A DNA stretch of 35,711 bases from Candidatus Woesearchaeota archaeon (lineage in GTDB: Archaea > Nanobdellota > Nanobdellia > Pacearchaeales > GW2011-AR1): assembly GCA_964530955.1 (NCBI GenBank), contig CAZHCL010000010.1, positions 1 to 35,711 on the forward strand. The letters run 5' to 3'. Made by a program: the position numbers and the translations under genes. This document shows positions 1,364 to 35,711 of this stretch, in pieces (within the stretch, counting starts at the first letter, position 1; each line of letters begins with the position of its first letter). The notes under the pieces were generated by a model, which saw only the letters and a list, made by a program, of their open reading frames with translations, ran no database searches and had not been told where the DNA came from.

Positions 1364-1458
1364 TTATAGACACTTTGTAGACAAAAGCTAGATTATAGAC
1401 TAAGTAGTGGCTACCGATTCAGTCCATAAAATCAGAGATATCCATAAAGTGTCCACAA
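1364..1458. repeat. dyad-symmetric array of six TTRTRGAY boxes around a GTGGCTACCGA-containing spacer
   Basis: TTATAGAC 1364, TTGTAGAC 1375 and TTATAGAC 1393; inverted GTCCATAA 1422, ATCCATAA 1440 and GTCCACAA 1451; spacings 11/18 and 18/11; all three pairs are centred on position 1411. Confidence 0.85.
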
Positions 1459-1596
1459 GCACAAAAGAAAGATATTTAAAGCTTTAACACCTTTTTTAAT
1501 TGTAAAAGAGAAGTGTTGTTTCTTGATGGTCTTAATTAGTTGTTGCTTTGCATATTTTGTCTTAATCCTTGAAAGGTAACAAGGATTTATAAGCAT

Positions 1597-2736
1597 GTGA
1601 AACTAAAGTTTCACATGGTTGATATGTATAAAGAAATTGAAGTTTCATTTGAGAAGCAATTTGAACGAAAACTCCAGAAGGCACTGGACTACTCTCGTTT
1701 CAAAGAGAGAGGATTAAAGTCTAATCCTTTTAATATTGATTTTAGTGGAGACCCTTGGAAAGTGAAGGTAGGTCGAGATGAAGAATTAATTACTGGGATT
1801 GAAAGCCTTAAGGAAATGGCAGACAAGAATACCAAGATGCTCAATATCTTGGCTCCACATGGTTATGGAAAAACAACCTATGAAATTCTTCTTCATAGTT
1901 TGGCTATTAAGTACAATTCAGACTTAGGATTTGAAAAGATTTTATTTATTAGAAATACAACAGAATTTAAACAGTCATTTGTTGATAGTTCATTCACAGC
2001 AGATTCTGATGGAGAAATTATAAAGATACCTCCTAGACTATTTACAGAACTGAAAATGACTAACAAGCCTGCTCTACTTTTTATTGATGATGCAGATATA
2101 ATATTTCAAGATAATCCGAAGACCTTTACTGATGTAACTAATTTAAACAACGTTTTGATAGTTGCTGCCTGGAACAAATCTGCTTGGGAAAGAGCAAAGC
2201 ACATACCCGATGTTAAATTCCCTTCGGTGGAGATAATTATGCTTAATAGACTTTCAAACTCGCAATGTGCAGAAATGGTCCAAAAGAGAATTTCTGAATT
2301 CAAAATGAGCAAGAGAGCAGATAATCTTTTCTCGCAGGACGTTACAGAAACTTTAGCAAGATTAGCCAATGGTAGCCCTCATCGCATTATTCGATTAGCT
2401 AAACGCCTTTTAAGTTACATGCTAGATAAAGGTCTTTTAGAAATCAAGGTAAGCCCAGAGTTTGATGAATTTATAGCTAGTGCAGATGACATTAGTTATG
2501 AAAACTTGAAAAAGAAAATGGTTTCCTTGAGTGAAACTCAAAGGAAAATAATTGAAGAAATGAAAAAAATAGTCGAAGCGGATGCAACTAAAGTAGGAAC
2601 TTTGGTAGGAATAACAAGGGTTGGCGCTATGAAACAATTACATGAGCTTGAAAAAATAGGAATGGTAGTTTCAGTTACAAAAGATAAAAAGAAAATATTT
2701 CAACTAAGAGAGGAGATAGAATATGGAACAGAATAA
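1597..2736 (+). CDS. AAA+ ATPase with C-terminal winged helix (Orc1/Cdc6-like architecture, divergent)
   Basis: Walker A APHGYGKTT, Walker B LLFIDDAD, helical lid NGSPHRII, wHTH LSETQRKII...ATKVGTLVGITRVGAMKQLHELEKIGMV; the true start may be ATG 1615 or 1624. Confidence 0.75.
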   Translation: MKLKFHMVDMYKEIEVSFEKQFERKLQKALDYSRFKERGLKSNPFNIDFSGDPWKVKVGRDEELITGIESLKEMADKNTKMLNILAPHGYGKTTYEILLHSLAIKYNSDLGFEKILFIRNTTEFKQSFVDSSFTADSDGEIIKIPPRLFTELKMTNKPALLFIDDADIIFQDNPKTFTDVTNLNNVLIVAAWNKSAWERAKHIPDVKFPSVEIIMLNRLSNSQCAEMVQKRISEFKMSKRADNLFSQDVTETLARLANGSPHRIIRLAKRLLSYMLDKGLLEIKVSPEFDEFIASADDISYENLKKKMVSLSETQRKIIEEMKKIVEADATKVGTLVGITRVGAMKQLHELEKIGMVVSVTKDKKKIFQLREEIEYGTE

Positions 2737-2795
2737 AACAAAATTATCAACATATCATGAACCTTTTGGATTGTACTTATTTACTACATGAGGTA

Positions 2796-2878
2796 CACGC
2801 CGGCTAGACTCCGTTTGTTCAAGGAGGAAGCCGGACGTGGGCTTTGGGTTATGCTCCATTCGTAGAGGCGCATAATCC
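2796..2878 (+). ncRNA. putative structured RNA or 3' element with two GC-rich hairpins
   Basis: Hairpin 1: CACG/CGTG, CCGGCT/AGCCGG and CTCC/GGAG stems (2796-2839). Hairpin 2: GGGTTATGC/GCATAATCC (2846-2878) with one G-U pair favouring the + strand. Confidence 0.4.
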
Positions 2879-2908
2879 TTTGTCGACTTGACTATGATAC
2901 CATTGTTG

Positions 2909-3049
2909 CTATTTTGGCTTGATTTTTAAATCTTTCTTAATGAGGTCTTCTAAATAATCTGAAATATCTTTGCCAAGCTGAATGCAATGAATCTTTACCT
3001 CTTTCCAAAGAGCCTCATCAATCTTTAGGCTGGTCGATTTGCGAGCCAT
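2909..3049 (-). CDS. ribbon-helix-helix (CopG/Arc/MetJ-like) DNA-binding protein, 46 aa, not in the ORF track
   Basis: Manual translation MARKSTSLKIDEALWKEVKIHCIQLGKDISDYLEDLIKKDLKIKPK*: TSLKID strand, then two helices with the typical S..LE.LI pattern; TATA-like TTTATATA on the minus strand at 3071-3078. Confidence 0.8.
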   Translation of the reverse strand: MARKSTSLKIDEALWKEVKIHCIQLGKDISDYLEDLIKKDLKIKPK

Positions 3050-3054
3050 AGAGT

Positions 3055-3137
3055 TATAGTGTTATGGTGGTATATAAACATGTATGTTGTAGACTAATAA
3101 GGTTTAAATAGTGTTATGGGGGTATAGTGTTATGGTG
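3055..3137. promoter_or_regulatory. three ATAGTGTTATGG direct repeats (candidate RHH operators) in the divergent RHH/transposase promoter
   Basis: Exact 12-mers at 3056-3067, 3108-3119 and 3124-3135, flanking TATA-like boxes at 3071-3078 and 3103-3110. Confidence 0.65.
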
Positions 3138-3175
3138 TTATACAAACGAATAAATTCATATTCACAGGAGAAAAA

Positions 3176-4222
3176 ATGCCTTACTTTAGAAAGCCGATAA
3201 AATCATGGGAAATTAAGAAGCAATGGTTGAAGCAGTTAGAACAAGAAATAGAGAATAAGGAAAAACAAACCACTCTTTATGCTGGTGACGGAGAGATTCT
3301 TGCCAGAAGAGTTATGCCTTTGGATAAACCAGAAAAGTCTCTTGAGCAGGAAAAAGATAAGTTTATTGTAAATATGTCTGATTTCATAGACAGAATTGCA
3401 TTTGAAGAATTACAGGAATACGGACGACCTAGATTCAATTTAAGAGATATTATGAAATGTCTTTTGGTCATGAGTTACAACTGCATGTCTTACAGAAGGT
3501 CTGAATCTGATTTCAGGAGAATGAAAGAAGAGGAAGTTATTAGCGAGATTCCAAAGAAAAGTGTATTAAACAAATATGCCAATTCATTAGAAATTAACAA
3601 TCTCTTAGAAAAGTTAATACAATATTCAGCAACTTTCTTTGTTGAGAATGAATCTACTGTAATTGTAGACTCGACATGGTTTGCAATAAGAAACAAATAT
3701 TATGGCGGGTATGAAACCGTACATGACAAAAGAGGAGCTTCCCTTGATAAAGTCAGAAAGTTGCACATTTGTTGTTTGAAAAATAGCAAAATAATTTCTT
3801 GTGCTAAAGCTACGAAAGGCACTGAAAGTGACTTTAATATGTTTGAAGAGTTGGTCAGAACGACTATTAAAAGAGGATTCAATATTTCCAGATTGTTAGC
3901 AGATGCAGGATACAGTTCGAGAAATAATTATCTTATTTGCAAGGAATTAGGAATACTTAATGCTTTTATTGATTTCAAGAAGAATTCTTCAGTCAAGAGA
4001 AGCAAGAGCGCTCTTTGGCGTGAAAGAGTTAGGATGTGGAAAGAGCAGAAAGAACTCTGGCATGAGACTTATAGATTTAGAGTTGTGATTGAGGGCTTTT
4101 TTAGTGCAATAAAAAGAAAAGGTTTGATATACCTTAGGTCTAAAACTGAGACTGCACAGGACGTTGAATTGCTTTTGAAAGTTTTGGTTTACAATGTTTG
4201 TGTCATTGGGAGGTATACATAA
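3176..4222 (+). CDS. DDE transposase (IS5/IS4 superfamily, DDE_Tnp_1-like)
   Basis: IVDSTWF, RKLHIC, LLADAGYSS and W...YRFRVVIEGFFSAIKRK..LRSK..Q..E give a complete D-D-E triad; AGGAG upstream of the ATG. Confidence 0.88.
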   Translation: MPYFRKPIKSWEIKKQWLKQLEQEIENKEKQTTLYAGDGEILARRVMPLDKPEKSLEQEKDKFIVNMSDFIDRIAFEELQEYGRPRFNLRDIMKCLLVMSYNCMSYRRSESDFRRMKEEEVISEIPKKSVLNKYANSLEINNLLEKLIQYSATFFVENESTVIVDSTWFAIRNKYYGGYETVHDKRGASLDKVRKLHICCLKNSKIISCAKATKGTESDFNMFEELVRTTIKRGFNISRLLADAGYSSRNNYLICKELGILNAFIDFKKNSSVKRSKSALWRERVRMWKEQKELWHETYRFRVVIEGFFSAIKRKGLIYLRSKTETAQDVELLLKVLVYNVCVIGRYT

Positions 4223-4232
4223 AGATTAAAAG

Positions 4233-5087
4233 ATGAGAATATTAAATAAAATCATGGAAAAAGAAGAAGACGTTTTAGAGAGTATAAAAGAAATAAAAAA
4301 GGTTTTAGGTAAACCTTATTTTGAAACGAAAGATTTTATTTTGTATAATCTAGATTGTGTAGAGGCTATGGAAAAGATAAACAAAGAGATTATAAATCTG
4401 ACTATCACTTCTCCACCCTACAATATAGGCAAAGAATACGAAGAGGTTATGCCTGTTAATGAATATGTTAAATGGTCTCAGACATGGATAAACTTAATTC
4501 ATAAGATAACTAAAAATAACGGGTCATTTCTCCTAAATGTAGGTTATTTAGAAGTACCCAAAAAAGGTTTTGCTGTTCCAATTCCATATCTATTATGGGA
4601 CAAGACGCCTTTTTATTTAGTACAAGAGATAGTTTGGAATTATGGTGCAGGAGTGGCTACTAAATATACGTTATCTCCTAGAAATGAAAAAATCTTATGG
4701 TATACAAAAGATATGGAAAATTATACCTTCAACTTGGATGAAATTAGAGATAAAGATGTCAAATATCCAAATCAAAAAAAGAATGGAAAATTAAGATGCA
4801 ATACACTAGGGAAAAATCCTTCAGACGTTTGGCAAATTGCGAAGGTTACTTCTGGCACAGACAGGGCGTCAGAAGAAAGAGCGCCTCATCCAGCTCAATT
4901 CCCAGTAGATATGATTGAAAGAGTTATAAAAGGATTCAGCAATAAGGGTGATTTAATATTAGACCCATTTATAGGTTCTGGAACGACTGCGGAGGTAGCA
5001 ATAAAAAATGGAAGAAAGATTATCGGTTTTGAGATAAATAAGGTATATTGTGATTATATTATTGAAAGAATTAAAAAAATAGAATAA
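4233..5087 (+). CDS. type II DNA methyltransferase, N4/N6 beta class (M.ScaI-like)
   Basis: TSPPYNIGKEY, WNYGAG, HPAQFP and DPFIGSGTT; strongly resembles M.ScaI as I recall it (LGKPY.ET, VKYPNQKKNGKL). Confidence 0.92.
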   Translation: MRILNKIMEKEEDVLESIKEIKKVLGKPYFETKDFILYNLDCVEAMEKINKEIINLTITSPPYNIGKEYEEVMPVNEYVKWSQTWINLIHKITKNNGSFLLNVGYLEVPKKGFAVPIPYLLWDKTPFYLVQEIVWNYGAGVATKYTLSPRNEKILWYTKDMENYTFNLDEIRDKDVKYPNQKKNGKLRCNTLGKNPSDVWQIAKVTSGTDRASEERAPHPAQFPVDMIERVIKGFSNKGDLILDPFIGSGTTAEVAIKNGRKIIGFEINKVYCDYIIERIKKIE

Positions 5088-5096
5088 GTCTAACAA

Positions 5097-5687
5097 TTAT
5101 CTTTTATAAATTACAACTAATTTATATTTGTCTGCAAGGTTGCTTACACTGGCTTGTTGACCTGTTTCAGAAGATTGAGAAATCCAGTCAGAATGGTCCA
5201 ACCACCCAAATCTAATTAATCTTATTTGAGGATTAGTTGATTCGTCAAACTTCTCAAAGTTTACTGCAAGATAATATCCGCTTTTATCCTTCTTTGATGA
5301 ATTTCCTTTCTGTCCATAGCTTCGGTTACCAAAAATTTTATTTTTATTAGAAGACGTTTTTATCTCTACAGAATAGAAAGGGTTCGGCAAATAAACTAAG
5401 TCTTTCTCCCCAACATCTTTTTCCTTTTTCCATAACTTAGGGTATTTTGCCTTAAGTTTTAGTGGGATAAGTTCATGCAAAAAGAAGCCCATTATTTGAG
5501 GACTTGGAAATATGTCTTTTCCTATCTTAAAATGCTCTGTGCCTATGCCAGAATCAAATATGCTTTTCCAAGACTCAAGAGTAGCATCAGCCATATCTCT
5601 AAGCGACAATGGGTGTTTTTTAATAAGGTCTTGAGTTATAGAAAGCCAATTCTTCTCGGGTTGTCCTTCATATGGAGATGCGACCAT
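5097..5687 (-). CDS. type II restriction endonuclease, ScaI family
   Basis: SPY.G, PSPQIMGFFLHELIP, EKDLVY, SVEIKTSS, IFGNRSY, GYYLAVNFEK, RFGWLDHSDW and TGQQAS are characteristic of R.ScaI; convergent with the MTase. Confidence 0.85.
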   Translation of the reverse strand: MVASPYEGQPEKNWLSITQDLIKKHPLSLRDMADATLESWKSIFDSGIGTEHFKIGKDIFPSPQIMGFFLHELIPLKLKAKYPKLWKKEKDVGEKDLVYLPNPFYSVEIKTSSNKNKIFGNRSYGQKGNSSKKDKSGYYLAVNFEKFDESTNPQIRLIRFGWLDHSDWISQSSETGQQASVSNLADKYKLVVIYKR

Positions 5688-5718
5688 AAATACGGGAGAA
5701 TTAGATGATATTTAGACT

Positions 5719-5793
5719 TTATGGACAGTTTGTGGATGGTTTTAGGTGATTGTGGATAAGATGAGATTTTATGGACTGACTTGTGGCTACCGA
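5719..5793. repeat. half-array of four TTRTGGAY boxes followed by the GTGGCTACCGA core
   Basis: TTATGGAC 5719, TTGTGGAT 5730, TTGTGGAT 5750 and TTATGGAC 5769; core at 5783-5793; 5719-5737 is 15/19 identical to 1364-1382. Confidence 0.85.
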
Positions 5794-5805
5794 AAGATTT
5801 ATATA
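5790..5805 (+). promoter_or_regulatory. BRE-TATA promoter of the AbrB-cdc48 operon
   Basis: CCGAAAGA-TTTATATA matches the archaeal BRE/TATA consensus, 54 nt upstream of ATG 5859. Confidence 0.6.
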
Positions 5806-5858
5806 TCCGTGTATACGAGATGTGTATATACAAAAGATAACTTATACCTAAATAAAAA

Positions 5859-9978: not shown

Positions 9979-10431
9979 TTACTTGATTTTCAATCTTCTG
10001 TCTTTTGGGACATAATTAAACAAAGTATTTCCATTTGATCTGCCGCAGCCGAAGAAATCTCCCCTACTTCTTATCGCATATATATTCTGAGGAAGATTTA
10101 GTTCTATGTCATTTCCTCTTATCCAGGCGTGCAATTGCTTTTCATCCAATTCTGCTATGTTTGTCTTTATCTGGGGAGAAAAAAGATGGGTGGCATCAAA
10201 ACTCAATCTGAATTCATTCTCTCTTTTTAATATGTAAAGACCTACCAGTTCTACATTAGCTATATCTTGTATTTTTAGTATTTCTTCTTTTGAAAGTGAG
10301 CCTGAGAATGCTCTTATTCTTTCCTTTCCTGATTCTATTAACAAATAGGGTAAGTCAGTTATTCCAAATTCTTCTTGCAAAGATTTTATTATCTCTCTTT
10401 TCTCAGGCGTTTTTATAAAATGAATGTTCAT
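9979..10431 (-). CDS. NIP7/PUA-like RNA-binding protein associated with the NOP2/RsmF methyltransferase
   Basis: RLSFDATH..., W.RGNDI and DFFGCG...LFNYVPKDRR resemble the RsmF C-terminal/PUA-like module; overlaps the upstream MTase stop by 4 nt. Confidence 0.6.
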   Translation of the reverse strand: MNIHFIKTPEKREIIKSLQEEFGITDLPYLLIESGKERIRAFSGSLSKEEILKIQDIANVELVGLYILKRENEFRLSFDATHLFSPQIKTNIAELDEKQLHAWIRGNDIELNLPQNIYAIRSRGDFFGCGRSNGNTLFNYVPKDRRLKIK

Positions 10432-35352: not shown

Positions 35353-35711
35353 TGATATACGAGCCTGCTGAAGATTCATTTCTTCTTGCTTCGGTAGTTA
35401 AGAAATTTTCTAAAGATAAGTACGTTCTCGATATGGGAAGCGGTTCTGGTGTCATAGCTCTTGCTGCTAAGGAAAACGGAGCTAGAGATGTTCTTGCAGC
35501 AGATATTAATGAGGAAGCAGTCAAACATATTCAAGATAAGGGAGTTAATGCTATTCAGTCAAATCTTTTTGAGAAAATAAAAGGAAAATTTGATGTTATC
35601 GCATTCAATCCTCCATATTTGCCTAGGGATGAAAATGAGGACAAAGAATCTTCTTTGATAACTAGCGCGGGGAAGGAACCTGAGGAAATTATTCTCCGTT
35701 TTTTGAAGAAA
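35352..35711 (+). CDS. HemK/N6AMT1-related protein methyltransferase (partial, runs off the window end)
   Basis: MIYEPAEDSFLL, VLDMGSGSG, AADIN, SNLF and FNPPY; TAATG overlap with the previous gene. Confidence 0.9.
   Translation, partial: MIYEPAEDSFLLASVVKKFSKDKYVLDMGSGSGVIALAAKENGARDVLAADINEEAVKHIQDKGVNAIQSNLFEKIKGKFDVIAFNPPYLPRDENEDKESSLITSAGKEPEEIILRFLKK

Follow-up and report, generated by a model that had tools for sequence, protein, structure and literature searches.

A mirror-symmetric six-box array as the probable junction of two cargo-transposon ends at an archaeal promoter edge

The window, by which we mean the whole stretch of DNA that was analysed (35,711 nucleotides), is the entire contig C10 of a Candidatus Woesearchaeota archaeon genome (G000), which comprises 761 kb in 26 contigs at 34% G+C and is estimated to be 83% complete. 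At its left edge lie a hypothetical gene of 147 aa (60-503, + strand), which has no Pfam or NCBIfam match, and a gene for a TylF-like methyltransferase (571-1329, - strand; PF05711, 1.1e-10). An array of six short boxes follows at 1364-1458. To the right of the array come the genes for an AAA+ ATPase with a C-terminal winged helix (1597-2736, + strand), a 46-aa ribbon-helix-helix (RHH) protein (2909-3049, - strand), a DDE transposase (3176-4222, + strand), an N6/N4 DNA methyltransferase (4233-5087, + strand; PF01555, 3e-57) and a ScaI-type restriction endonuclease (5097-5687, - strand; PF09569, 3.5e-77), with a GC-rich non-coding stretch between the first two. Beyond them stands a host operon consisting of a 174-aa gene and cdc48, whose promoter, with its TATA box at 5798-5805 (+ strand), aligns with that of a relative, G007.

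The array comprises three TTRTAGAC boxes on the + strand, which start at 1364, 1375 and 1393, and three inverted boxes, which start at 1422, 1440 and 1451. The spacings of 11 and 18 nt in the first set are mirrored by spacings of 18 and 11 nt in the second, about a midpoint at base 1411. Direct reading and pattern scans thus reproduced both the positions and the spacings of the six dyad-symmetric boxes that the original prediction had described. A scan of all 761 kb of the genome counted 262 instances of TTRTRGAY, and the Poisson expectation for six such motifs in any 95-nt window is ~1e-6 genome-wide. A genome-wide scan for clusters of this motif, which had been proposed as a check, found them confined to the two halves of the array and one further site: with a relaxed box motif, the only same-orientation clusters of at least three boxes in the genome are at 1364-1400, 1422-1458 and 5719-5776. 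The AT-rich stretch that lies past the array contains TATA-like elements and, by its sequence, is probably a promoter and leader region.

The transposase is IS5-like (DDE_Tnp_1, PF01609; Pfam, 7.2e-15) and keeps the invariant DSTW, DxGY and Y-2-R-3-E-6-K motifs, with the conserved residues D165 and D243 present. Its gene is single-copy in this genome. The best-scoring IS family among the NCBIfam models is IS5_2 (NF033579), at 92.5 bits against a curated cut-off of 140. A tblastn search of plasmids with the transposase returned only weak matches (24-31% identity, annotated 'transposase'), and a link to IS903 itself is putative.

We found that the genes from the ATPase to the endonuclease, together with the GC-rich stretch and the RHH gene, are contained in a complete transposon of 4,367 bp, element B (1416-5782), which has two ends, an inverted repeat, a target duplication and an intact transposase. 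The methyltransferase and the endonuclease form a ScaI-type restriction-modification pair and are cargo of B. The left end of B (1416-1458) consists of a 6-nt terminus (1416-1421) followed by the boxes at 1422, 1440 and 1451, that is, at 0/18/29 from the terminus inward. The right end (5719-5782) carries boxes starting at 5719, 5730, 5750 and 5769 and a 6-nt terminus at 5777-5782; from this terminus inward, its four boxes lie at 0/19/39/50. The terminal inverted repeat is perfect over 15 of 15 nt (1419-1433 versus 5765-5779), and the two box sets are likewise inverted with respect to each other. B is flanked by a direct target duplication, GTGGCTACC(GA), of 9-11 bp: the left copy is at 1407-1415, with the exact repeat extending to 1417, and the right copy is at 5783-5791, with the exact repeat extending to 5793. 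A whole-genome search for the 11-mer found two occurrences only, at 1407 and 5783, and at both it begins 14 nt past the start of the last box. Outward of B's right terminus, the host-operon TATA box starts at position 15 (counting from 0), such that it is separated from the element by the 9-bp duplication and 6 nt.

The 174-aa gene and cdc48, to the right of the block, are syntenic in most relatives. In G007, a 448-aa gene lies divergently upstream of the 174-aa gene; its orthologue in G000 starts 126 nt from the end of another contig, C23, and homology between the two genomes restarts at the promoter just to the right of the 11-mer. The ATPase, transposase, methyltransferase, ScaI-type, TylF and 147-aa genes have no match in four syntenic loci of relatives. 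Relatives lack the whole 5.8-kb block but keep the promoter, and the DNA to its left is too diverged for a base-exact empty site. Judged by these sequence comparisons, the block is an accessory insertion.

A hot spot lies upstream of the 174-aa/cdc48 operon (L032:3800-4170; L028:10017-14150). The island found there at L032 carries a methyltransferase gene, tRNA-Gly and an ATPase homologue, and it stops at the promoter of this operon, ~16 nt further upstream than the G000 block does when measured to the TATA box; G010 has three unrelated genes (167, 79 and 1062 aa) in this space. Between the TATA box and the 174-aa start codon (5806-5858 in the window) lie palindromes that contain GTATAC and are conserved in L027, L028 and L032. 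The 174-aa protein contains a zinc ribbon and a weak AbrB/MazE-like match, and thus may regulate itself.

Homologues of the transposase were found in 57 of the 300 other genomes of the order. We oriented 13 loci on the transposase, which yielded the complete elements L058, L059, L061, L063 and L064 (3.2-5.1 kb) and single ends at L054, L057 and L062. The transposases of L057-L059 and L061-L064 are 42-49% identical to that of B, that of L054 is 57% identical, and at least six related genomes are represented. Fifteen ends from nine loci have a common architecture, in which a 6-nt terminus leads into a GTCCATAAA-like box and additional boxes follow at a distance. The left ends of the family carry boxes at 0/18-19/29-30, and the right ends of the related elements carry them at 0/19/39 or 0/19/30. 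Exact direct repeats flank L059 (10 nt), L064 (12 nt) and L061 (11 nt), and L058 is without a clean duplication; assuming a 6-nt terminus at each end, we read the three repeats as target duplications of 9-10 bp. Cargo varies by element and includes genes for proteasome-like, membrane, wHTH and methyltransferase proteins. Many of the elements also have a divergent RHH gene, and small homologous genes occupy the position of the RHH gene in L064 and L054.

These data bear on the suggestion in the original prediction that the array could be a recombination site. If it were the attachment site of an integrative element, a tyrosine or serine recombinase would swap strands within a shared core, the boxes would serve as arm-type sites, and the six boxes together would make up a complete attP-like site where two tandem elements meet; the shared exact core with its flanking box arrays, and the half-array with a core at the far end, do fit such a tandem integration. 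However, every ORF within 1416-5782 is accounted for, and none encodes an integrase or resolvase of either the tyrosine or the serine recombinase class. In addition, the sequences that border the core on its inner side form a perfect inverted repeat, as transposon ends do, and the supposed core is wholly different between related elements and measures 9-12 nt, like a target duplication. The only gene common to all elements is the DDE transposase. An attachment site is consequently very improbable: the array is a recombination site only in the sense that its boxes are terminal and subterminal repeats of DDE-transposon ends, and not in the sense of an integrase-type att site, for which 1416-5782 encodes no recombinase.

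The gene directly to the right of the array had given rise to a different proposal, that of a novel origin beside an initiator gene. The ATPase has a weak match to PF25199, and its start is likely the ATG at 1615 rather than the GTG at 1597. Only seven homologues were found in a library of 5.8 billion proteins, and the ATPase was not found in 60 relatives; an identical protein, known from a 5.9-kb contig, is among the closest homologues. Pfam, NCBIfam and PDB sequence searches revealed no sequence similarity of the ATPase to Orc1/Cdc6. PDB sequence searches with either the ATPase or the transposase gave nothing significant, and viral contigs contained no relatives of either protein. In a structural model of the ATPase (pLDDT 61), ORC/Cdc6, RuvB, RFC and NLR ATPases match about equally well (TM ~0.4), and the modelled fold appears to be that of a generic AAA+ protein.

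A replication origin or iteron set that has the ATPase as its initiator and serves either the chromosome or the element when excised as a circle would be in keeping with the position of the ATPase gene beside the array and with the presence of ORC/Cdc6 chains, such as archaeal 2qby_A, among the best fold matches of the ATPase model. However, these fold matches are to generic AAA+ proteins on a low-confidence model. Furthermore, no box cluster occurs within 600 nt upstream of the ATPase homologues at L031, L032 and L033, and at L032 and L033 none occurs on the whole contig; conversely, related elements with the same boxes carry no ATPase. By sequence, then, the boxes travel with the transposase and not with the ATPase, and iterons for the ATPase were rejected as a candidate on these grounds. 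The centre of the array (1401-1421) has ~43% G+C and is not AT-rich, and searches of the relatives did not recover the locus. We judge an origin at the array to be extremely improbable, and the proposal of a novel origin found no support.

The genome carries a canonical orc1/cdc6 gene elsewhere, at C6:7107-8198, which matches TIGR02928 at 423 bits; the ATPase of the window gives no TIGR02928 hit. Directly upstream of orc1/cdc6 (L011:1020-1215), an AT-only tract of ~60 nt lies between ORB-like TTCCATGGAAA-type inverted repeats, and by sequence this region is a candidate chromosomal origin. The boxes of the array differ from these repeats; the original prediction had noted that the boxes do not match the canonical ORB. 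A chromosomal origin at the array was also considered and rejected, given that the ATPase and the block are not in the relatives searched and that orc1/cdc6 and ORB-like repeats are on C6.

The boxes might instead serve mainly to control the divergent promoters of TylF and the ATPase as a cooperative operator, bound by the RHH protein or by the winged helix of the ATPase, with their position at the ends of elements being secondary. The start of the TylF gene (1329) is only 35-77 nt from the nearby boxes, and the TylF promoter must therefore overlap them; moreover, motifs of the end type are found again between the RHH and transposase genes (3048-3147), a hint that regulation may be shared. On the ATPase side, in contrast, a TATA-like box at 1583-1590, which is probably the promoter, and a palindrome at 1597-1614 precede the start at 1615, and both are at least 125 nt downstream of the array. 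An operator for the ATPase, as had been suggested, is thus unlikely. It also counts against an operator that the same boxes are found at both ends of elements with unrelated neighbouring genes, and that the boxes of B's right end face no promoter of their own. As the primary explanation an operator is quite improbable; such a role is nevertheless compatible with the boxes being transposon ends, and the one does not exclude the other.

The palindrome before the ATPase gene spans 18 nt, lies between the TATA-like box and the start, and is of the type GTGAAAC, 3-4 nt, GTTTCAC (GTAAC/GTTAC in homologues). It is kept in four of four loci (1583-1617 in the window, L031 ~9990-10010, L032 ~2675-2692 and L033 ~740-760) and, going by this conservation, is probably an operator for the ATPase's own winged helix. 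The GC-rich stretch in the spacer between the ATPase and RHH genes (2790-2880) is predicted to adopt a structure of two stable hairpin domains (-44.1 kcal/mol, z = -3.26). It has no Rfam match at gathering or E-value thresholds and is not a tRNA. In its place at L032, tRNA-Gly(TCC) and a different GC-rich stretch come after the ATPase homologue. The RHH protein, which has a weak RHH_1 match, is encoded divergently from the transposase, and the operator-like repeats between the two genes include one end-type box (3087-3094) and a motif of ~12 nt that is present three times. The same spacer contains differing repeats in related elements (GTTATGG-like in L063 and L062, and others in L054, L058 and L053), which suggests that they are element-specific RHH operators.

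The left half of the array belongs to a second element, A, whose end occupies 1364-1406: the boxes are at 1364-1371, 1375-1382 and 1393-1400, and the 6-nt terminus is at 1401-1406. From terminus 1406 inward, the boxes lie at exactly 0/18/29, as in the left ends of B, L058 and L063. Because this is the spacing of a left end, A is probably inverted and head-to-head with B. The sole DNA that separates the termini of the two elements is the left copy of B's target duplication. A runs leftward off the contig, and what is visible of it is this end and the TylF and 147-aa genes. The TylF gene, which reads inward from A's end and was not found in 40 relatives, is probably cargo of A. We found neither the other end of A, nor its transposase, nor a third copy of the 9-mer, nor further copies of the element in the G000 assembly. 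We infer that A is probably a whole element in inverted orientation, head-to-head with B; since its second end and transposase are missing from the assembly, it could also be a solo end or a relic.

Together, these results indicate that the array is the junction of two cargo-transposon ends that face each other across one 9-bp target, a reading to which we assign a probability of roughly 85%. Each box (GTCCATAAA-like, read from the terminus inward) would be a terminal or subterminal repeat of IS5/IS903-like DDE transposons with passenger genes. The spacings of 11 nt and 18-20 nt correspond to about one and two helical turns and would suit cooperative binding by the transposase; the boxes most likely bind the transposase of their own element in this manner, which would assemble a transpososome. 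The RHH protein is an alternative box binder. On the reading of two facing ends, the mirror symmetry arises because both ends share the 0/18/29 spacing and both elements used one 9-bp target, and the use of the same target twice leaves the termini exactly 9 bp apart.

We propose that two elements could have come to share one target as follows. The family would insert with a duplicated target, then ~6 nt, then a TATA box, that is, at the upstream edge of a host BRE/TATA; here, the promoter hit would be that of the 174-aa gene/cdc48 operon. Because such an insertion would spare the promoter along with one copy of the target, the site would stay open to a second element, which would displace the first. 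The product of a double insertion would be, in order, target, A, target, B, target and promoter, and a third copy of the target is predicted to lie in the unassembled gap. The order of the two insertions and the manner in which the promoter edge would be recognized are conjectural parts of this scheme. Two pattern searches of the 300 genomes of the order for head-to-head multi-box junctions gave matches at the level of the reversed-pattern control, and of the 24 candidate loci fetched, none had multi-box arms at the junction. Double hits are therefore rare.

Insertion at promoter edges is consistent with the flanks of other family members. The motif TTTAWAWA was present 14-17 nt outside at least one terminus in five of the five complete elements tested: on the right of B, on the left of L059 and L061, and on both sides of L058 and L064. 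The flank of L054 contains a near-match. The chance of such a motif is ~0.7% per element, a figure that takes the whole locus as background and is thus too optimistic, in that an intergenic background would raise it, and that applies to few elements. No TATA motif was found in the flanks that have one usable end, namely those of the right ends of L057 and L062 and of the left end of L063. L063 (G083:C1) is a possible exception to promoter-edge insertion; the DNA just outside its left end resembles a tRNA gene's 3' portion rather than a TATA box. The target has TATA-like boxes on both sides, ~6-8 nt away, in L064 and L058.

Promoter-edge targeting would explain why A and B share one target. An alternative is that insertion is directed by a resident end, for which the geometry is identical to that of promoter targeting (box, 6 nt, 9-mer). 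It is also conceivable, and we hold it as somewhat unlikely, that the choice of target uses the geometry of end recognition, with a box 6 nt from the donor cut and a TATA box ~6 nt from the target cut. In that case the transposase, or a complex that reads DNA bent by TBP/TFB, would treat the BRE/TATA or a resident terminal box as a pseudo-end, and the second element would be drawn to the ideal, symmetric target (end box, 6 nt, 9-mer, 6 nt, TATA) that the first had produced on insertion. If so, the six-box array would be natural evidence that an archaeal transposon family, seemingly undescribed, targets promoter edges or resident ends with base precision.

The elements resemble the IS903 group and the IS5 family in their single DDE_Tnp_1 transposase with Y-2-R-3-E-6-K, in their terminal inverted repeats and, for the IS903 group, in a target duplication of ~9 bp. 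The target duplication of IS903 is 9 bp. An IS5 model is the best in NCBIfam, yet its score remains below the cut-off, as given above. In contrast to these insertion sequences, which are ~1 kb long and have one simple inverted repeat, the elements described here are 3.2-5.1 kb long, contain passenger genes and have three or four spaced boxes at each end; they also often include a divergent RHH gene and insert beside TATA boxes. Several transposase-binding sites at each end are found in Tn7, phage Mu and Tn552/Tn5053. The likeness to these systems lies in the three sites at one end and four at the other, in their fixed spacing, in their inversion between the ends and in the presence of cargo. 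However, Tn7, Mu and Tn552/Tn5053 use rve-type RNase-H-fold transposases and AAA+ partners (TnsC, MuB), whereas the transposase here is of the IS4/IS5 type and the AAA+ gene is not conserved among related elements and, for this reason, is probably cargo.

Two ends that face each other across a spacer of the length of the target duplication are also known from IS30, which integrates next to its own inverted repeats and into hot spots (PMC9333248). Its abutted junctions are of the IRL-IRR type only, have a 2-bp spacer and arise via copy-out-paste-in (PMC9333248). In the present case, by contrast, the ends come from diverged elements, both are probably of the left type and the spacer is 9 bp; a shared promoter target explains the junction without targeting of ends. 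The array shares with archaeal oriC the inverted repeats beside a gene that encodes a winged-helix AAA+ protein. It differs in having neither the ORB consensus nor an AT-rich unwinding element between its arms, in that its locus is not conserved in relatives, and in that orc1/cdc6 and ORB-like repeats are elsewhere, on C6.

Literature searches found no published description of this cargo-transposon family, which is apparently undescribed. What is new is the multi-box architecture of the ends and the double hit on one promoter-edge target. This family carries restriction-modification and other accessory genes between archaea of the Woesearchaeota type, and the anatomy that the locus adds for it consists of a 6-nt terminus and three or four boxes at each end: a terminal box of the GTCCATAAA type and others 18-20 and 29-40 nt away. 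The double hit, taken with the TATA motifs 14-17 nt outside one terminus of every complete element tested, would be compact evidence from nature that elements insert at the upstream edge of archaeal core promoters, and insertion of this kind would set cargo genes beside host promoters without destroying them. The analysis also removes a false candidate origin, and the reading of its neighbouring gene as an 'initiator', from a DPANN genome.

The right end of the window (~35560-35711) shares two near-contiguous exact stretches, which together span ~85 nt, with the end of contig C20 (~5296-5382). From this overlap in sequence, contigs C10 and C20 probably adjoin.
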